From IMG/VR virus record IMGVR_UViG_2576861133_000001: 19,349 nt of DNA, one strand, 5' to 3'. A model generated the notes under the pieces. That model saw only the letters and a program-made list of their open reading frames with translations. It ran no database searches and was not told where the DNA came from. Numbering within the stretch: position 1 is the stretch's first letter; each line of letters starts with the position of its first letter. The translations under genes were made by a program, and so were the position numbers. Of this stretch, positions 1 through 17,161 are shown piece by piece. Source of the stretch: a virus. Its lineage: Duplodnaviria; Heunggongvirae; Uroviricota; Caudoviricetes.

Positions 1-144
1 CCTCACGAGGCGTGTGTGCCTTACCGCCACCTTTTCCCATACAGCCTTCCCCTGAATAAATTAACCGCCACTTGCCATTCCGTACAGAAGTCGGATATCC
101 TTCGCCCGAAAAGCATGAAACACATTTCTGCCATGCTAAAGAGA

Positions 145-174
145 AACCCCGGTATCAGCAGATACCGGGGTTTT
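145..174. terminator. Rho-independent terminator-like hairpin, possibly bidirectional; may end the minus-strand late operon about 210 nt after gene I
   Basis: Perfect 10-bp stem ccccggtatc (147-156) / gataccgggg (161-170) with a 4-nt loop, followed by tttt (171-174) on plus and flanked by an A/T-rich stretch on the other side. Confidence 0.5.
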
Positions 175-245
175 CTTTCATGCCCACCGATAATCCTGTT
201 GGTTAAAACCGGTAATGGCATAAAAATTCTGAATATCTTCACATT

Positions 246-273
246 TTCACAAACTGACTGTGGCGCGTATAAT
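246..273 (+). promoter_or_regulatory. Sigma70-like promoter candidate (TTCACA, 16-bp spacer, TATAAT)
   Basis: -35-like ttcaca at 246-251 and consensus -10 tataat at 268-273 with a 16-bp spacer; no ORF with a ribosome-binding site follows before the 339-379 terminator. Confidence 0.35.
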
Positions 274-338
274 TTCTCTGCGTTAATTTTTTTGTCGTGA
301 TATAAGAATAATTCCTTACACTTAATCTTCGTAACTCT

Positions 339-9162: not shown

Positions 9163-9489
9163 TCATAACACCGTCGGACAACGCAAATCGTAAATCAGCA
9201 CGGAAACAGAAAACGGCAGCTCCCCCTGAAGCAGTTCTTCCCGCTCCGCAAGATCCGGATTCCGGTACAGCATCCCGGTCAGTCGCATGGCAGCCCCCTT
9301 CATCCGGGTTAATGCCTCGCCCGGGATCAGTTCACCGTCCTCACGGATCACTTTATCCCGGCTGCCCTGAATGTAGGCCAGCAGCACGGCGGTAGCCTGA
9401 CGAACCTTGTCCATCAGCATGTCATCATCCGCGTCATGGTCGACACGCAGATGTGCCTTGATCTCTTCCAGTGTCAGTAATGCCGTCAT
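9163..9489 (-). CDS. gp6-like head-tail connector protein
   Basis: 108 aa; N-terminal motif LTLEEIKAHLRVDHDADDD is typical of gp6-type head-tail connectors; its ATG overlaps the portal stop. Confidence 0.7.
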   Translation of the reverse strand: MTALLTLEEIKAHLRVDHDADDDMLMDKVRQATAVLLAYIQGSRDKVIREDGELIPGEALTRMKGAAMRLTGMLYRNPDLAEREELLQGELPFSVSVLIYDLRCPTVL

Positions 9490-12071
9490 TTTCCGCCTCC
9501 TGCATCCCGCCCACGTTTTGCAGCCAGGGTCCAGGCTGATGAATGAGCTTCTCCGGGTTTATCTTCGGTCATACTGTTGCAGTGCCACAGCGAGCCCCCC
9601 CACGTCACCGTATCGCCGGGGTGGTAGGTTTCACCGGCTCTGAACACACCGCGGTAGAGCATCACCGGCAGGGAAAATGTTTTTTCCGTACGCTGGCCAC
9701 TGCTCTGCCGGACCACCACAGAGAACAACCGCTCACCCGTCATGCTGACGTCAATATCCGCCACCCCGTCAACCAGGCATTCCCATCCCCGCATCCCGTG
9801 CGTTTTTTCATACGCCCGCCAGAGTCCGCCCTGGTGTGTGGCATACGTGCCCCGGGGAAAGGATTTTTGATCGTCAATGGCGGGGAGTATTTCCAGAGCC
9901 GTGGCATCACGCCCGTCCTGCGGAGCCGGCAGGGCACTCACCGCATCCAGAACCGCCTTCTGCAGAACATCCGGATCGTAGTCACGACCATCACGCGGAA
10001 CATGAATATGGCTTACCGCCTCCTTCACCATCTGTTCAAGCATCGGACGCACATCATCCGGGGTGAGACTTTTACCGTCTGCCGGCTGCGGAATATTTGC
10101 GACCGCATCATTCACCGCCTTCTGCAGAACATCGGGATCATAGTCACGACCGTCGCGCGGAACAGGGATATGGCTTACAGCCTCCTTCACCATCTGTTCA
10201 AGCATCGGACGCACATCATCCGGGGTGAGACTTTTACCGTCCGCCGGCTGCGGAATATTTGCGACCGCATCATTCACCGCCTTCTGCAGTACTTCCGGAT
10301 CGTAGTCACGACCATCACGCGGAACAGGGATATGGCTTACAGCCTCCTTCACCATCTGTTCAAGCATCGGACGCACATCATCCGGGGTGAGACTTTTACC
10401 GTCCGCCGGCTGCGGAATATTTGCGACCGCATCATTCACCGCCTGCTGCAGTACATCCGGATCATAATCACGACCATCACGCGGTACCGGAATGGCCCCC
10501 ACAGCGTCATCCACCATCGCCTGCAGAACCGGACGCACCTCATCCACCGTCACATGCTTCTGTAATACCGCCGACAGGGAAGTCAGTTTCTCTTCAAACG
10601 CTTGTGCCTGCGAGGCCATCTTCCCCTCAAATGTGCGCTGTAAATCCGCCAGCACTGTGGAGAATTCTTCTCCCAGTGCACGAATAATGGACAGTTCCCG
10701 TTCCGTCATTTTCTCAGTATCCCCCCTGAACATCGCTTTCACCGCATCATGCTCTGTTTCACTGATTGCCTTATTACCGTCAGATGCGCCGTCAGGCAGC
10801 TGTGATGAAACTGTTTTCCCGGCAGACGCGAACGGATCCTCACGGGCATCACGACGGGACAGCGCCTCCAGACTGTAGTTCTGCTGCTGAAGATACAGTG
10901 CATCACCGCCGGCCAGGGGCGGCAGGTTCTCCCGTTTACGGGCCTCATTGGGCGTGAGAAGCGTATTTTTCACCGCATCCCCCAGCGTTTTCATGCGCCG
11001 CTCACTGTCCATTCTCAGCAGCGTGGTGACATCAAATTCTGTACTCTCGTTTTCCCCCGTTTCCAGCGCCTCATCCAGTAACAGTTCAATGGACTCAATC
11101 AGCGTCTGCAGGCACTGGGAATAATACTGCTGCTCCAGCGCCTCCACGTTGTCACTGGAAGGCGGTTGTCCCACGCCAATCTTGTAGGCCGGGACACGGA
11201 ACACCGAACAGACAATTTCAGCGGTCATCTTCAGTTGTTCCACCGTCTGCGCATCCACAGGTGAAAACGTCGTGGGGTTGTATTTTGCCCCGTTGCTCAG
11301 AATGGCCGTTTTCCCCGCATTTTCGCCTGTATACCCGCTGTCCCAGTTGCTCTTCAGTTTTTTCGCATTTTCTTCCGTAATACTGCCGGGGATCTCAATC
11401 ACCCCGGACGGCCTGCCGCCATTTCTGAAAAAAGACGTCGAATTTTCCTGAATATGATGCCCCTGCGTGGCCGCCAGCCCGGCGGCATACACCGGCGGCA
11501 ATCCTATAAGCGGATGAAAAAAACAGTTAAACCGGTCGTGGATCACTTCCCGGGCAGGCACCGTCACCGCCTCCGTGATCCCGCAGTTCCGGTCCGGCGT
11601 GATGCGGTAGAACACCTCGCCGTCATCCGCCACCAGAGGTTCAACCCGGCTCCAGTCCAGAATACGCAGTTCTTTGATCTGCCCCCGGGCATTACGGATT
11701 TTCAGCACCACCGTATTGCCATGACGCAGTTTGGCGTTCAGCCACAGTTCAAAAAACTGGATGCGGTTCTGCTGGGCGTTGGGACGACGACAGAGGCGGG
11801 CAATATCCCCCCGGCGCGTTTCCCTGCGTATCCCATGCGCATCCGTCTGCATAAGACGCAGCCGCATTTTGGCGATATCCTGGGATATCAGCGAAATACA
11901 TGCAAACACCGCATGAAAGGAGAGGACGGCTTCAGGATCGGCTTTCACGCCCTGCTGCCAGGCGCCGGAAAAGGGCTCAGCCACCGCCTGAAACAGGCTG
12001 GTCCAGCCCGCCTCTCTTACGTCACGTCCTGATTTCTGGTTTTTTCGGGTTCGCCGTAAAAGGTTCCACAT
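9486..12071 (-). CDS. HK97-family portal protein with a roughly 350-aa C-terminal extension (tandem 54-aa repeats plus a terminal aromatic-rich domain)
   Basis: The N-terminal roughly 450 aa align by eye to HK97 portal (FRNGGRPSG...KTAILSNGAKY...FRVPAYKIG against recalled FGNGSRPSG...KTAVL...FGVPPHLVG); the C-terminal part is an uninterrupted extension of the same ORF. Confidence 0.8.
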   Translation of the reverse strand: MWNLLRRTRKNQKSGRDVREAGWTSLFQAVAEPFSGAWQQGVKADPEAVLSFHAVFACISLISQDIAKMRLRLMQTDAHGIRRETRRGDIARLCRRPNAQQNRIQFFELWLNAKLRHGNTVVLKIRNARGQIKELRILDWSRVEPLVADDGEVFYRITPDRNCGITEAVTVPAREVIHDRFNCFFHPLIGLPPVYAAGLAATQGHHIQENSTSFFRNGGRPSGVIEIPGSITEENAKKLKSNWDSGYTGENAGKTAILSNGAKYNPTTFSPVDAQTVEQLKMTAEIVCSVFRVPAYKIGVGQPPSSDNVEALEQQYYSQCLQTLIESIELLLDEALETGENESTEFDVTTLLRMDSERRMKTLGDAVKNTLLTPNEARKRENLPPLAGGDALYLQQQNYSLEALSRRDAREDPFASAGKTVSSQLPDGASDGNKAISETEHDAVKAMFRGDTEKMTERELSIIRALGEEFSTVLADLQRTFEGKMASQAQAFEEKLTSLSAVLQKHVTVDEVRPVLQAMVDDAVGAIPVPRDGRDYDPDVLQQAVNDAVANIPQPADGKSLTPDDVRPMLEQMVKEAVSHIPVPRDGRDYDPEVLQKAVNDAVANIPQPADGKSLTPDDVRPMLEQMVKEAVSHIPVPRDGRDYDPDVLQKAVNDAVANIPQPADGKSLTPDDVRPMLEQMVKEAVSHIHVPRDGRDYDPDVLQKAVLDAVSALPAPQDGRDATALEILPAIDDQKSFPRGTYATHQGGLWRAYEKTHGMRGWECLVDGVADIDVSMTGERLFSVVVRQSSGQRTEKTFSLPVMLYRGVFRAGETYHPGDTVTWGGSLWHCNSMTEDKPGEAHSSAWTLAAKRGRDAGGGK
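9869..10546. repeat. About 4.2 tandem copies of a 162-bp (54-aa) near-identical coding repeat inside the portal gene
   Basis: Period-162 registration at 9961, 10123, 10285 and 10447; the three central copies differ by only a few substitutions; protein unit DDVRPMLEQMVKEAVSHIPVPRDGRDYDPDVLQKAVNDAVANIPQPADGKSLTP. Confidence 0.85.
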
Positions 12072-12238
12072 TCGCCATGCTCCGCATCACGTTTCTTTTT
12101 CTGACCTGCCGGACGTCGCACCGTGATGTACTCCGCCTTTCCCAGGCGAACCAGCACCTCCGCACACGGCTGTGCCACATCACGGATATCCCCGGCCCGG
12201 GCATCATGCGTGCCCTGCAGATATCGGATCTTTGCCAT
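12017..12238 (-). CDS. Hypothetical 73-aa basic protein in the capsid-portal intergenic gap (doubtful)
   Basis: ATG-initiated ORF in the ORF track; weak ribosome-binding site; overlaps the first 18 portal codons out of frame. Confidence 0.2.
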   Translation of the reverse strand: MAKIRYLQGTHDARAGDIRDVAQPCAEVLVRLGKAEYITVRRPAGQKKKRDAEHGECGTFYGEPEKTRNQDVT

Positions 12239-12282
12239 AACCTGTTACGGGAGGCGCACGCCTCCCGTCCTCCTTATCAGAC

Positions 12283-14220
12283 TCAGCCGCCGGACGCACT
12301 GCCGTAGTTCACTCCGGTGATCACCGCCACCGCCGCAGTACGGCGACGACGCCAGTTGATCCAGCGCTCCGCACGGATGGCCACGCTGCCTGTCTGGAAC
12401 ATGGAAACCAGCTCCACCGGGGACGGCGTGGTACTGTCGCCGGTCGGCTCAGACTGCATTTCCAGTGATGCCTCGCGGGACATATCCACTGCCACGCCGC
12501 CGTCATCCGCCAGATAAATATCCGGGGCATTCACCAGCACCAGCTGGTCACCCACGTACTGGGAGACAATCACCGGCAGCCCCTGGAAGGAGCCACCCAG
12601 CAGGGTCATGTCCGGGTATTCCTTCTGACCCAGCGCATTTTTACGCATGGACAGTGCCAGGGCATTGGTGCTGGACATCAGCCAGACCGCACCGGTGGGC
12701 TGCAGGTTTGCTGCCACAAACTGTCCAAACGCAGCCTCTGCATCCGCATCCGGGTTACCGGTTGATGCCGTGCCCTTCACATCATGGGTGATGGACGCCG
12801 GGGAGACATCTGCCACTGCGGCTTTTTTCGGGTCCACAAAGTCTGTATCCAGACGCGCCACCACCGCTTCCGCCAGCGCATTACGGACCAGTGCATCAGC
12901 AGCCGGACTGGAAAAACGGATCAATTCTTCCGTCAGTACCGCAATGGCCGACACCTTCGCATGACTGAAGGTGATGGATTCAAAATCAAACTTCGTCAGG
13001 GGTTTTGCCTTACCCTCACCCACCCAGCCGGCAGCACCGCCGGACACCTGGGCGTGCACACGGATATTGAATGGCACCTGACGAAGTGCAGGGATCCCGC
13101 CCTGACCAAATCGCCCGATAATGGTCTGCGGACGCAGGTAATCAATAAAGTCCTGTGCGTATTCCTGATATTCAGACAGGCTGCCTGCCCACTGCGGATC
13201 CGTGGTGGTCCCCGCGCCCACTGCCGATTTCAGGACATGATGCAGACGACTGTCATCCGGATACTGACGACGGGCCACTTCCAGGGCTTCAGATCGGACG
13301 CCTTTAGCCGCAGCCAGCGATTTGGCAAAGCGGGCGAAGCCAATCCCCTTATCCAGTTTCTGCTCCACACGGATCACCGGCGCAGAAGCCACCGCGGCCA
13401 CATTCCCGTTACCGGCCTGTTTCACCGGCTGCGCCGTGGCGGCCTTACCGGCTTCCAGTTCACGCAGGCGCTTCAGGTGCGCATCCACCTGACGGATTTC
13501 CGCTGCGGTGTTGTCGTAATGCTCTTCCTCCTCCACATCCAGCGTGCGCCCTTCCTCTGCGGCTTTGGTCATGACCTCCTCAAGGGAGGCTGCCAGCGCT
13601 GCACGCTTGTTTTCAAAACTTTTAATCTGTTCGCCAATATTCATTATGGTCTTTTCCTTATGAAAAACGGTTGTTGACTGTGCCGCAGCGCCGGCAGAAG
13701 ATGCGATTTTCACCACCGGTTTCCGGTTGCCGGACGCGGCAGAAAACGGGCGGTCGTAAGATTTAATGGTCCGGATGGTGCATTCCGCATTCGCGGGCAC
13801 GGTGACGGCAGACACCTCCATCAGTTCCCAGCGCAGAAAATGCAGTCCGCCTCCGTCCAGAAAGGTGTATTCATGGGGACGGAAGCCCACGGACAGCCCC
13901 CTGACCAGCCCGGTCTTAATGGCCGCCCAGACCTCATCCAGCCGGGCAGCCAGTTGCGACGGCATATCCGGTACGGGCTTCACCAGTGTTGCCGTGATTT
14001 CCAGCCCTTCGCTGACCCGGCGCACCGTACACTGCCCCACCGGGCGGGAATGGTCATGCTGCCAGAGAAACGGGATCGCACTGCCAAACTCCGCGCCCTC
14101 CGGCTCCAGGATGTCACCATCCCGATCCGGAGAAGGCGTTGACGCAATCCCGGTGATCACCCGTTCATCCTCACTGAAGGATTTCACCGTCAGCAGGGAA
14201 CAGGCCCGTTTAAGAGTCAC
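12283..14220 (-). CDS. Fused HK97-family prohead serine protease (S78-like) and major capsid protein
   Basis: 645 aa; N-terminal protease-like motifs (GIASTP...LWQHD...GLSVGF...EVSAVTVPAN), a central coiled-coil delta-like segment, and a C-terminal HK97-fold capsid-like region; GTG start at 14220 preceded by AGGAGG. Confidence 0.8.
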   Translation of the reverse strand: MTLKRACSLLTVKSFSEDERVITGIASTPSPDRDGDILEPEGAEFGSAIPFLWQHDHSRPVGQCTVRRVSEGLEITATLVKPVPDMPSQLAARLDEVWAAIKTGLVRGLSVGFRPHEYTFLDGGGLHFLRWELMEVSAVTVPANAECTIRTIKSYDRPFSAASGNRKPVVKIASSAGAAAQSTTVFHKEKTIMNIGEQIKSFENKRAALAASLEEVMTKAAEEGRTLDVEEEEHYDNTAAEIRQVDAHLKRLRELEAGKAATAQPVKQAGNGNVAAVASAPVIRVEQKLDKGIGFARFAKSLAAAKGVRSEALEVARRQYPDDSRLHHVLKSAVGAGTTTDPQWAGSLSEYQEYAQDFIDYLRPQTIIGRFGQGGIPALRQVPFNIRVHAQVSGGAAGWVGEGKAKPLTKFDFESITFSHAKVSAIAVLTEELIRFSSPAADALVRNALAEAVVARLDTDFVDPKKAAVADVSPASITHDVKGTASTGNPDADAEAAFGQFVAANLQPTGAVWLMSSTNALALSMRKNALGQKEYPDMTLLGGSFQGLPVIVSQYVGDQLVLVNAPDIYLADDGGVAVDMSREASLEMQSEPTGDSTTPSPVELVSMFQTGSVAIRAERWINWRRRRTAAVAVITGVNYGSASGG

Positions 14221-14232
14221 ATCAGCCTCCTG

Positions 14233-14258
14233 AAAATAAAAAAACCGCCGGAGCGGTT
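14233..14258 (-). terminator. Intra-operon hairpin with U-tract between the terminase large subunit gene and the capsid gene
   Basis: Stem aaccgc (14243-14248) / gcggtt (14253-14258), loop cgga, followed on the minus strand by tttttatttt; same sequence family as the hairpin at 6511-6533. Confidence 0.4.
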
Positions 14259-14283
14259 CGTGATGGTTACAGTGTGAACAGGG

Positions 14284-15945
14284 TTATATGAAAAAAACCG
14301 CATATTCTTTCTTTTTCGGTTCCGGGTTAAGGGACATCAGGGAGACCGCATTGAACAGCGCCATCAGCGGGTCAATTTTTCCCCGTCCACTGGCCTGTTT
14401 GGTGATAAGAATGGCGTTACCTTTAGGCTCCACCCGGGCATTGCCGACACACCAGGCCATCAGGGGCTGGTCACCATGCACCAGCACCCCTTCAGCCAGT
14501 TTGCGCTCGGTGGTTTTAATGGCCCCGCCCAGTTTCCAGCCCTGGCTTATCCCCACCACAATTCCGTCGGGGATCCCGGCTTCCGCCAGTGAATCCAGAA
14601 TCTGCCCCACCCCTGACGGGTCAATACCGATATGGTCCAGTAACTCAGCCTCATGAATGCGACGCACATATTCCGCCACTTCCGCCGTGTCATCCCCGAC
14701 ACGCCGGACAATGGTCATATCTCCACAGGCAACAAGATCCTGAAACCGGGACGCCTCGCTCTTCCGTCGGACCACCGCGGTTTCATGCGCCCAGGCATGG
14801 CCCCAGCCCAGCCATTCGCGGGTCTCCCGGTCACGCCCAATCACATACATCCCCAGCAGATCATCCAGCCCTCCGCCGTCAATCCCCACCGTCACCACAT
14901 CAGCACGACGCAGGATATCGTCCAGGCTGATACAACGGCCCTGCTCTTCCCAGAAATCAGCCCCCGCCCAGCGGTCAGAGCGCAGGGCAAGACCAATTTC
15001 CACATTGGCGTGTTTTGACATGAACCCCCGGAATGTCTCTTCACCGGCTTCCCGGGCTTTACGGTACTCCCGGTACAGAAAGGCCTCATCCACTGAATAG
15101 CCGAGATTCGGATTGACCATGGCGAGGTTTTCCATCAGCAGGTTAGTCCCGCTTTCCACCATTTCAGGAGGGTGTTCAAATATCACCGGCAGAAAGTGCG
15201 GATCATGAATTTTGCCGTCGCGCACATCCCGGGCGTACTGCAGTTTCTGTCTGAACACCCCGGCGGGCGGTTCATTCGACTGGGTGGTCGTATACACCAC
15301 AAACCCTTCCGGGCGGGAGGCAAGGCCGCCTATGGCTTCACGTAACATGTCCTCCGCCTTGCACTGCTTGCCAAACAGCCACAACTCATCAATCAGCGTA
15401 CCCACGGACTTGATACCGGACACCGTATTCGGATCGGCTGCCACCACCTTCAGGGTGGTGTCCGTCACTCGGTGGGTGATGGTCCGGATATGGGTCTGTA
15501 CCTGGCAGAGGTCATCCAGATCATCGTCACGTCGTACCATATCCCGGGCAGGGTTGAAGGCGTTGGCCGCCACCTCCACAGTCGGGGCCAGAATCGTGTA
15601 ACCCGCCGCCTGCCGCCAGTTCAGTAACAGTGCAGTCATCATGATCCCCGCGGCCAGCGTGGACTTCGAGTTTTTCTTGGGGATAAGGATAAAAACTTCC
15701 TTGATATGGCGTACACCGGTCTGCGCATCGTAGGAGCCAAACAGGGCCGCCACCAGGTCAAACACCCACGGTGCACAGGACTCCCCGAACGTAGGGCTAC
15801 CAGGTGCATCCACAATCCGCAGTTGTTTAAAAATCGCCAGGGCATGTGCGGCCTCGTCCGGATAAATCGGATCCGGAATAATCGACAGCCCCTTTTTCAG
15901 GCGCTCTGCCCAGTCCGGGCAGGCTGTGCTCCATACAGGTATCAT
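14284..15945 (-). CDS. Terminase large subunit
   Basis: 553 aa; Walker-A-like LIPKKNSKST; C-terminal nuclease-like region; ATG overlaps the small-subunit stop as ATGA. Confidence 0.85.
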   Translation of the reverse strand: MIPVWSTACPDWAERLKKGLSIIPDPIYPDEAAHALAIFKQLRIVDAPGSPTFGESCAPWVFDLVAALFGSYDAQTGVRHIKEVFILIPKKNSKSTLAAGIMMTALLLNWRQAAGYTILAPTVEVAANAFNPARDMVRRDDDLDDLCQVQTHIRTITHRVTDTTLKVVAADPNTVSGIKSVGTLIDELWLFGKQCKAEDMLREAIGGLASRPEGFVVYTTTQSNEPPAGVFRQKLQYARDVRDGKIHDPHFLPVIFEHPPEMVESGTNLLMENLAMVNPNLGYSVDEAFLYREYRKAREAGEETFRGFMSKHANVEIGLALRSDRWAGADFWEEQGRCISLDDILRRADVVTVGIDGGGLDDLLGMYVIGRDRETREWLGWGHAWAHETAVVRRKSEASRFQDLVACGDMTIVRRVGDDTAEVAEYVRRIHEAELLDHIGIDPSGVGQILDSLAEAGIPDGIVVGISQGWKLGGAIKTTERKLAEGVLVHGDQPLMAWCVGNARVEPKGNAILITKQASGRGKIDPLMALFNAVSLMSLNPEPKKKEYAVFFI

Positions 15946-16505
15946 CCGTTGCCCTCATTATCGTTATTCACCACCAGTCGGGGGGGCGGTGGCACCGCAA
16001 AACGGTTAGCCGCTTTTTTCGCGGCATCACCTTTTGCCGATTTTTTCCCGGTATCCCCTTTTTTATGGTGCGTGAACTGCGCCAGACGCCAGGCCGCATC
16101 CAGTGCCAGTTTCGGATCAATGCAGAGGTTTTCCACCAGGATCCGCCCCATGGCTTTCACCGGATCGGGAAGACCATCCTCCATATATTCAATACCAGGA
16201 GACATCACCGCGGACGGTGGCATCTCCAGATTGTTTTCGTCCGGCTGTGGTATTGCAGCCGCCTCACGGCGACGGGGTTTATCCTCCTGCTCTGATTTTT
16301 TCTGCCGGTAAACAGGAACCTCATCCACCTCCACCGTCTCGCATTGTTTACGGGCTATAAACGCAAGCACCTCAGGATCTTTTGCCAGCTGCGAGCCTTT
16401 AACCCTGGCGGTCTTCGCCGAATAACCGGCGGCAATGGCTGACGCTGTTTTGTTTTTCCCGGACATGAGCGCCAGCGCAAATTTTCGTTTTTGCGTTGTC
16501 AGCAC
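15942..16505 (-). CDS. Terminase small subunit (Terminase_2-type HTH N-terminus)
   Basis: 187 aa; GTG start at 16505 preceded by GGAGGAGG; N-terminus LTTQKRKFALALMSGKNKTASAIAAGYSAKTA resembles small-terminase DNA-binding domains. Confidence 0.75.
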   Translation of the reverse strand: MLTTQKRKFALALMSGKNKTASAIAAGYSAKTARVKGSQLAKDPEVLAFIARKQCETVEVDEVPVYRQKKSEQEDKPRRREAAAIPQPDENNLEMPPSAVMSPGIEYMEDGLPDPVKAMGRILVENLCIDPKLALDAAWRLAQFTHHKKGDTGKKSAKGDAAKKAANRFAVPPPPRLVVNNDNEGNG

Positions 16506-16795: not shown

Positions 16796-17161
16796 TTACA
16801 GTCCGATGATGTCGTCCTCTCTGCCACTACCTCCGGACACCTCCGGCAGCGTCGGGTCCGGCATACCACTCGCCGCTTCACGAGCAGACTTTTGTCGATG
16901 GCATTCGGCACAGAGCGTCCAAAGATTCGTCTCCTCATTACCACCACCGAACTGAAGTGCAATTCGGTGATCGAGTTCACTGTCACAGAGGTCAACCACA
17001 CGACCACAGATACAGCACTGCCCGGCGTCCCTCAGCCAGATATGACGCTTGAGGGAAACACGTGCACTGCCACTGACACGACGCTGCTCCCCCTTCAGAA
17101 TATTCACCCGTCGGGTATTCAGTGTTTTGATTCTGCTCTGGAGTGTACGAAGCTCAGCCAT
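16796..17161 (-). CDS. HNH endonuclease (terminase-associated)
   Basis: 121 aa; zinc-finger-like CCICG...C...DH...N...N...CAECH HNH motif; location immediately upstream of the cos-like region and terminase genes, as in HK97-type packaging modules. Confidence 0.85.
   Translation of the reverse strand: MAELRTLQSRIKTLNTRRVNILKGEQRRVSGSARVSLKRHIWLRDAGQCCICGRVVDLCDSELDHRIALQFGGGNEETNLWTLCAECHRQKSAREAASGMPDPTLPEVSGGSGREDDIIGL

Follow-up and report, generated by a model that had tools for sequence, protein, structure and literature searches.

The window, i.e., the whole stretch of 19,349 nucleotides that was analysed (IMG/VR record IMGVR_UViG_2576861133_000001, Caudoviricetes), belongs to a lambdoid, long-tailed, Stx-type (Pankowvirus-like) E. 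coli prophage, of which it forms the late region. Its head module is composed, in this order, of terS, terL, the protease-capsid gene that is the subject of this work, a small ORF, the portal gene and a connector gene (Table 1). The placement of the capsid gene before the portal gene is unusual and is conserved from the Enterobacterales to the Alphaproteobacteria (loci L001-L026). A separate scaffold gene had been reasoned to be absent, and the conserved head module indeed leaves no room for either a separate protease gene or a scaffold gene. The neighbouring genes possess features of their own. The Phage_portal domain of the portal protein (861 aa) ends near residue 382 and is followed by a C-terminal extension of about 450 aa, which contains a 162-bp (54-aa) tandem repeat (3.3 copies, 95% identity), shows a weak CBM_5_12-like match in its C-terminal part and was identified by tblastn to be conserved in most related loci. 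Between the capsid and portal genes, and overlapping the portal start, a 73-aa ORF matches PHROG 829 (E 4e-39); this ORF is conserved in most enterobacterial loci and is unannotated in the phage 2851 record. Upstream of terS, the translation of a 121-aa ORF reveals an HNH-type motif (CxxC...HxxxxxxGG...N...CxxCH); the equivalent ORF carries the note 'Restriction endonuclease' in the record of phage 2851. An HNH endonuclease adjoining the terminase is typical of cos phages. A terminator-like hairpin with a T-run (GAACCGCTCCGGCGGTTT TTTTATTTTC) resides just ahead of the Shine-Dalgarno (SD) site of the protease-capsid gene, within the 63 nt that separate this gene from terL. Late transcription that is antiterminated by Q may pass through it, or it may have an effect on translation from the first start; a scan for terminator-like hairpins revealed such sites to be no more frequent than expected by chance.

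The gene itself is located on the minus strand, which the original prediction had left unnamed, and the single polypeptide of 645 aa claimed there was confirmed as one uninterrupted ORF: one frame is kept throughout, and neither a stop codon nor a frameshift is found between the protease and capsid halves. The GTG start and the strong AGGAGG site before it were likewise found as described. GTG was identified as the start since an ATG located two bases upstream reads directly into TGA; homologues mostly carry ATG at the equivalent codon.

Table 1. Features of the protease-capsid gene and its surroundings (positions in the window) and segments of the AlphaFold model.
Feature	Residues	Position	Strand	Description
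Head module		9163..16505	minus	terS to connector
Portal gene		9486..12071	minus	861 aa
Portal tandem repeat		9952..10484		54-aa unit
73-aa ORF		12017..12238	minus	between capsid and portal genes
121-aa ORF		16796..17161	minus	HNH-type motif
Terminator-like hairpin		14242..14259	minus	between terL and protease-capsid gene
Full ORF	1-645	12283..14220	minus	645 aa, 69.0 kDa; protease, linker, delta-like scaffold hairpin and HK97-fold capsid protein; stop codon 12283-12285
Shine-Dalgarno AGGAGG		14226..14231	minus	5 nt upstream of GTG start; anti-SD duplex -10.3 kcal/mol
GTG start codon	1	14218..14220	minus	
Prohead serine protease domain	~17-154	13759..14172	minus	S78, assemblin-like fold
His55 codon	55	14056..14058	minus	candidate catalytic residue
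Ser110 codon	110	13891..13893	minus	candidate catalytic residue
Linker 1	155-192	13645..13758	minus	disordered, pLDDT <50; amino acid identity 14-58%; proposed internal translation initiation region
RNA hairpin A		13711..13755	minus	putative; apical stem-loop GCC-GCGUCC-GGC (13729-13740) on covarying lower stem
RNA hairpin B		13682..13695	minus	putative; GCCG-GCGCUG-CGGC
Internal SD-like AAGGA		13655..13659	minus	10 nt upstream of internal ATG; A-rich unstructured stretch
Internal in-frame ATG (Met193)	193	13642..13644	minus	proposed start of 453-aa, 48.2-kDa delta-capsid precursor
Delta-like scaffold segment	195-262	13435..13638	minus	helices 195-222 and 229-262 as hairpin; pLDDT ~96
Linker 2	263-292	13345..13434	minus	variable, partly disordered
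HK97-fold major capsid domain	293-645	12286..13344	minus	
Lys331/Ser332 codons	331-332	13225..13230	minus	guessed vicinity of maturation cleavage
AlphaFold model	1-16			disordered
AlphaFold model	17-154			beta-rich domain, one long helix
AlphaFold model	155-189			disordered linker
AlphaFold model	195-222 and 229-262			two long helices
AlphaFold model	268-278			second weak stretch
AlphaFold model	~293 onward			capsid domain

An N-terminal HK97-type serine protease, a coiled-coil, delta-like linker and an HK97-fold capsid domain had been proposed to follow each other within this polypeptide, and all three parts were confirmed by domain searches of both halves, by the predicted structure, by Foldseek, by the invariance of His55 and Ser110 and by a resemblance to 9gyi_B. 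Within the protease half, Pfam Peptidase_S78 (PF04586) matches residues 48-152 with 34.7 bits (cut-off 21) and PHROG 80 'head maturation protease' matches with E 1.9e-41, the domain possessing the herpesvirus-assemblin-like fold. The equivalog level of TIGR01543 (HK97 proheadase; cut-off 59) was missed, the score being 46.5 bits and, when the N-terminal part was taken by itself, 49.5 bits; by this NCBI threshold the domain is a relative, not an equivalog, of the HK97 proheadase. Both candidate catalytic residues are invariant in an alignment of 118 sequences (A4), and among the fused representatives from the best 150 of 1197 cluster representatives His55 was found in 144/144 and Ser110 in 143/144. 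Within the other half, Pfam Phage_capsid (PF05065) matches residues 386-635 with 53.1 bits (cut-off 24.2) and TIGR01554 (HK97 capsid) matches residues 204-584 with 78.1 bits (cut-off 27.5), this domain possessing the HK97 fold, and PHROG 617 spans the whole protein (E 1e-261). AlphaFold prediction based on 118 diverse sequences reached a mean pLDDT of 86.7, an earlier run with 17 close homologues having been unusable (mean pLDDT 40.7), and all three parts are seen in the resulting model, with the predicted coiled coil appearing as a two-helix hairpin. A Foldseek search carried out with this model returned the Bxb1 capsid protein (E 8e-15) and HK97 (about 1e-10). The profile of the scaffold segment matches residues 4-70 of 9gyi_B, which form the N-terminal segment of a solved capsid protein. 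Maturation cleavage was guessed to occur near Lys331/Ser332, leaving a mature subunit of about 314 aa and 33 kDa, since the alignment of 8gta_A, a mature capsid chain, begins at profile position ~346 and since the pLDDT dips at residues 331-350. An hhalign comparison of a shallow profile with HK97 gp5 gave no alignment, hence the HK97-equivalent cleavage site could not be mapped and the position stays a guess.

The fusion gene is real, common and already annotated, as documented by its identity to genes in phage records, its prevalence in E. coli and the size of its cluster. Three Escherichia phage records contain genes with 100% identity to it; the identity is 99.8% for phage 2851 (Pankowvirus, EP2851_53) and 99.7% for YYZ-2008 and Stx2a_WGPS6, whereby records of Stx-type phages annotate it as 'major head protein/prohead protease' or 'phage major capsid protein'. 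At the nucleotide level, the genes of phage 2851, YYZ-2008, Stx2a_WGPS6 and JLK-2012 are 99.5-100% identical to it over the whole ORF and are flanked by alike terS, terL and portal genes; no difference of substance separates them from the gene described here, and their records annotate neither an internal start nor an RNA element. The ORF was found in 1255 complete E. coli genomes out of 5426 (the identical ORF in 1252), at up to seven copies each and under the name 'phage major capsid protein', as well as in 92 phage records, and its cluster at 90% identity comprises 9916 member sequences. Its identity as a protease-delta-capsid fusion, representing the head gene of a Stx-type prophage, is regarded as virtually certain. 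Matches from the Enterobacterales were filled by fused homologues of 644-650 aa. Among 26 homologous genome loci, which reach down to 39% identity and include Proteus, Hydrocarboniphaga, Marinobacter, Hyphomicrobiales and Caulobacteraceae, 25 span the whole gene; intact fused homologues of 632-708 aa are present in 23 of these, which places the ORF far beyond chance, and one ORF is retained in all but one, the divergence of the protease half keeping pace with that of the capsid half. The exception, the homologous gene of an Arsenophonus endosymbiont (L021, 4001-5928), is broken, its frame closing after 65 codons, which is consistent with prophage decay in an endosymbiont. An exhaustive search yielded 1197 cluster representatives at E <= 1e-30, and both halves are present in 144 of the best 150; as judged from these sequence comparisons, the fusion is old and conserved. 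The 705-aa protein P0261 carries a different N-terminal domain, read from the sequence by eye as ClpP/S49-like, joined to the same capsid protein with a Met at the junction, and if this reading holds, proteases of a different family have been fused independently to this capsid family.

At the domain boundary following linker 1, the sequence signatures of a nested arrangement were identified, namely an internal in-frame start codon, that of Met193, preceded by a ribosome-binding site, and it is probable that translation initiates here as well. Met193-Asn194 is invariant in one alignment of homologues (A1) while the preceding linker varies and contains indels. Comparison of 24 homologous genes (39-100% identity) revealed ATG at column 193 or, in Hydrocarboniphaga, GTG, the two most distant loci having an ATG two to seven codons upstream, and in 23 of the 24 an AAGGA or GGAGG(G) motif resides 6-10 nt upstream of the internal start, this motif being weak only in a locus from Hyphomicrobiales (L022). 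The amino acids that encode the internal SD differ by lineage (KG, KE, QG, QE, RE or TE), and where a Gly codon lies within it, 16 of 19 relatives use the rare GGA. Codon choice is scrambled among all four codons at 38 further conserved Gly columns, with no more than 4 of the 24 genes using GGA at any one of these. A sliding measure of synonymous-codon identity has its sole peak within the gene at codons ~157-192, where it reaches 0.70-0.85 as compared to a mean of 0.46. When all 631 codon columns were ranked, column 193 came first for SD presence (duplex of -5 kcal/mol or better in a fraction of 0.92 of the homologues), third for A+T content (64%) and fourth for weakest local folding (-3.2 versus about -10 kcal/mol), and six other conserved Met columns have none of these SD, A+T or folding traits. 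Among the 144 fused representatives from the best 150 of 1197, a Met is located within the 16 residues before the EQI motif in 131, with mostly Val or Leu in the remainder. Five high-scoring homologues of 456-478 aa (P0200, P0229, P0251, P0257 and P0264) begin at the residue equivalent to Met193; these could result from choices of the gene caller rather than being true stand-alone genes.

The internal SD of the enterobacterial homologues, which are related to one another and do not represent independent samples, is of moderate strength (about -5.6 kcal/mol, approximately the top 10% of in-frame positions), that of the first start being stronger (-9 to -12 kcal/mol), and the spacing of 10 nt between AAGGA and ATG in the window is on the long side. 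Part of the nucleotide conservation within the linker may reflect protein function, e.g., a cleavage site, as even very distant relatives keep its peptide motifs AAxG and PGxxG. Recombination that homogenised the linker was considered as a cause of the nucleotide conservation and was rejected, since the linker shows the lowest protein identity of the gene. A scan for sigma-70 promoters detected no internal promoter within the gene, thus a separate transcript in the style of UL26.5 is unsupported. No report of an internal start in protease-capsid fusions, nor of proteomics of heads of the phage 2851 type, was found in the searchable literature.

Upstream of the internal SD, linker 1 encodes two putative RNA hairpins, A and B, and confidence is fairly high that these, as predicted from comparative data, represent real RNA structure. 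The apex of hairpin A, GCC-GCGUCA-GGC, is invariant in the relatives and has C as the last loop base in the window; at this apex, the wobble base of an Ala codon is paired with the leading base of a Gly codon, and the reverse pairing occurs too. The lower stem of hairpin A varies in sequence by lineage with the pairing being kept, and individual folds of hairpin A gave a mean z of -2.1, 17 of 23 being below -1.5. Hairpin B reads GCUG-GCGCUA-CAGC in most relatives, its U-A pair joining two synonymous sites for which a compensatory C-G pair is found in the window, in Marinobacter and in Hyphomicrobiales; 100% of its cells are paired, with both partners changed in two of its four pairs. Hairpins A and B are equally far apart in 20 of 23 loci, which allowed for an ungapped alignment of 86 nt that was not fitted to the structure. 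Within this alignment, 82.9% of the cells are paired as compared to 23-43% for slid partners, nine pairs have both sides changed and none of 500 shuffles reached the observed values, whereby the tested structure had been derived from the same, mutually related sequences. RNAalifold recovers both apical hairpins. When 151 nt of the window were folded on their own, a z of -1.3 only was obtained, hence the case for an RNA structure rests on the comparison. An Rfam search of the hairpin region gave no match at either threshold, and a two-hairpin element of about 75-85 nt with GCGYYA loops and fixed spacing was found neither in the searchable literature nor among the Rfam families. Functionally, the hairpins may keep the A-rich start region from pairing with the G+C-rich coding sequence; they could instead be a processing or binding site.

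The explanation favoured here, which taken as a whole is considered rather likely, assumes a nested gene, i.e., one frame that gives rise to two products, which co-assemble and are trimmed after assembly. Ribosomes initiating at the GTG would synthesise a 69-kDa protease-delta-capsid chain, and those initiating at the internal ATG a 48-kDa delta-capsid chain. Long and short chains would co-assemble via their identical capsid and delta parts, and the protease would thereby enter the procapsid as an N-terminal appendage of some of the subunits, a mode of delivery that would take the place of the C-terminal tail by which a free protease is targeted. Once the procapsid is assembled, the protease would remove itself and the delta segment, probably cutting near residues 331/332, and the outcome would be a shell of mature subunits of about 33 kDa, with a separate scaffold gene being unneeded. 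The two products, their ratio, the cleavage sites and the role of the hairpins are what we infer from the signatures described above.

In HK97, a separate protease gene follows the portal gene, and the protease enters the prohead by means of its own C-terminal tail. As compared to HK97 gp4 and gp5 (delta domain plus capsid), protease and delta-capsid protein are here fused in frame, and their common gene is located between terL and the portal gene; at the sequence level, the similarity to gp5 is too low for profile methods. Precedents for nested protease/scaffold genes were reported for lambda, HSV-1 and the archaeal virus HFTV1, which was profiled recently (bioRxiv 10.64898/2026.09.13.751334). 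Lambda C/Nu3, HSV-1 UL26/UL26.5 and HFTV1 gp17 each combine a long protease product with a shorter in-frame product of common C-terminus, as is proposed here, and few proteases are thereby delivered among many scaffold-bearing chains. However, the shared part is in these systems scaffold only, with the capsid gene being separate, whereas here it would comprise both scaffold and capsid protein, and the internal start was demonstrated there, whereas here we infer it. Protease-scaffold-capsid fusions were also reported for actinobacteriophages of clusters EE, AN, AM/AU and EL (BurtonThePup gp5, Maggie gp7 and Circum gp12; PMC7302621, PMC5513430), and in the available portions of these papers the same three functions in one gene appear as unusual but recurrent and are tied to very small genomes, with no discussion of an internal start. 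The phage described here has about 57 kb and the hosts are different; the likeness is one of architecture. The curated NCBIfam model NF045541 ('prohead protease/major capsid protein fusion protein') describes the same architecture and matches residues 48-287 in part, with 54 bits against a cut-off of 525, which places the 645-aa protein outside this narrow family.

Different readings of the gene were considered. An artefact or pseudogene, in which adjacent protease and capsid genes had been merged by a sequencing error or a recent frameshift, is of negligible probability and is already refuted by the conservation data: nothing specific argues for it, even though odd fused database entries do exist, and it is countered by the identical ORF in 1252 complete E. 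coli genomes, by the cluster of 9916 members and the 92 phage records and by the retention of the fusion in distant Proteobacteria. One such entry, P0001 (1079 aa, from one E. coli record), holds a terminase ATPase domain and the protease-capsid protein in one chain, the terL stop having probably been lost through a frameshift or an artefact of assembly. More weight is to be given to the reading that the gene is a fusion and nothing else, whereby only the 645-aa chain would be made, the protease of each subunit would digest itself and the delta segment away, and the internal Met and SD would be a relic of the start of an ancestral capsid gene or serve another purpose. A single ORF that begins behind a strong SD is in agreement with this, the published descriptions of actinobacteriophages treat such genes as simple fusions, and by the author's rough estimate about 415 copies of the internal part of ~36 kDa would still fit a T=7 procapsid. 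However, a relic would not be expected to retain a start codon, an SD with a rare codon, an A-rich unfolded context and the synonymous peak across 39-100% identity, nor does such an origin account for the Met near the junction in 131 of 144 distant fused representatives; this reading is thus considered unlikely, though not negligible.

Similarly doubtful is the idea that the hairpins are unrelated to the translation start and mark a site at which the RNA is processed or bound, e.g., an entry point for RNase III or RNase E by which the late mRNA would be split, or an operator recognised by a protein of the phage or the host, or else represent a feature of single-stranded DNA. The similar GCGYYA hexaloops of the two hairpins, their fixed spacing and their covariation, together with the lack of a matching Rfam family, would be compatible with such a function, and hairpin A has a bulged stem and is of sufficient length to be reminiscent of phage RNase III sites. 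On the other hand, nothing points to a binding partner or to cleavage, and the hairpins lie immediately upstream of the SD and ATG; the two functions do not exclude each other, as processing could expose the start.

The original interpretation was supported overall, and the fusion as noted there was correctly read, being an ordinary gene, annotated long ago, from a prophage type that ranks among the commonest in E. coli. Only the probable start at Met193 and the RNA element within the ORF are possibly new. For the family, the evidence tips slightly towards the view that its widespread 'protease-capsid fusion' genes are nested two-product genes, which would provide the delta-capsid precursor in bulk and a minority of chains with protease, the RNA element of about 75-85 nt helping to set the ratio. 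If true, this would explain how fused genes avoid a protease on every capsid subunit, and the nested-gene logic of lambda and the herpesviruses would be extended to a shared part that includes the capsid protein itself. A second CDS, starting from codon 193, would then be needed in thousands of prophage records, including those of the Stx phages of EHEC.
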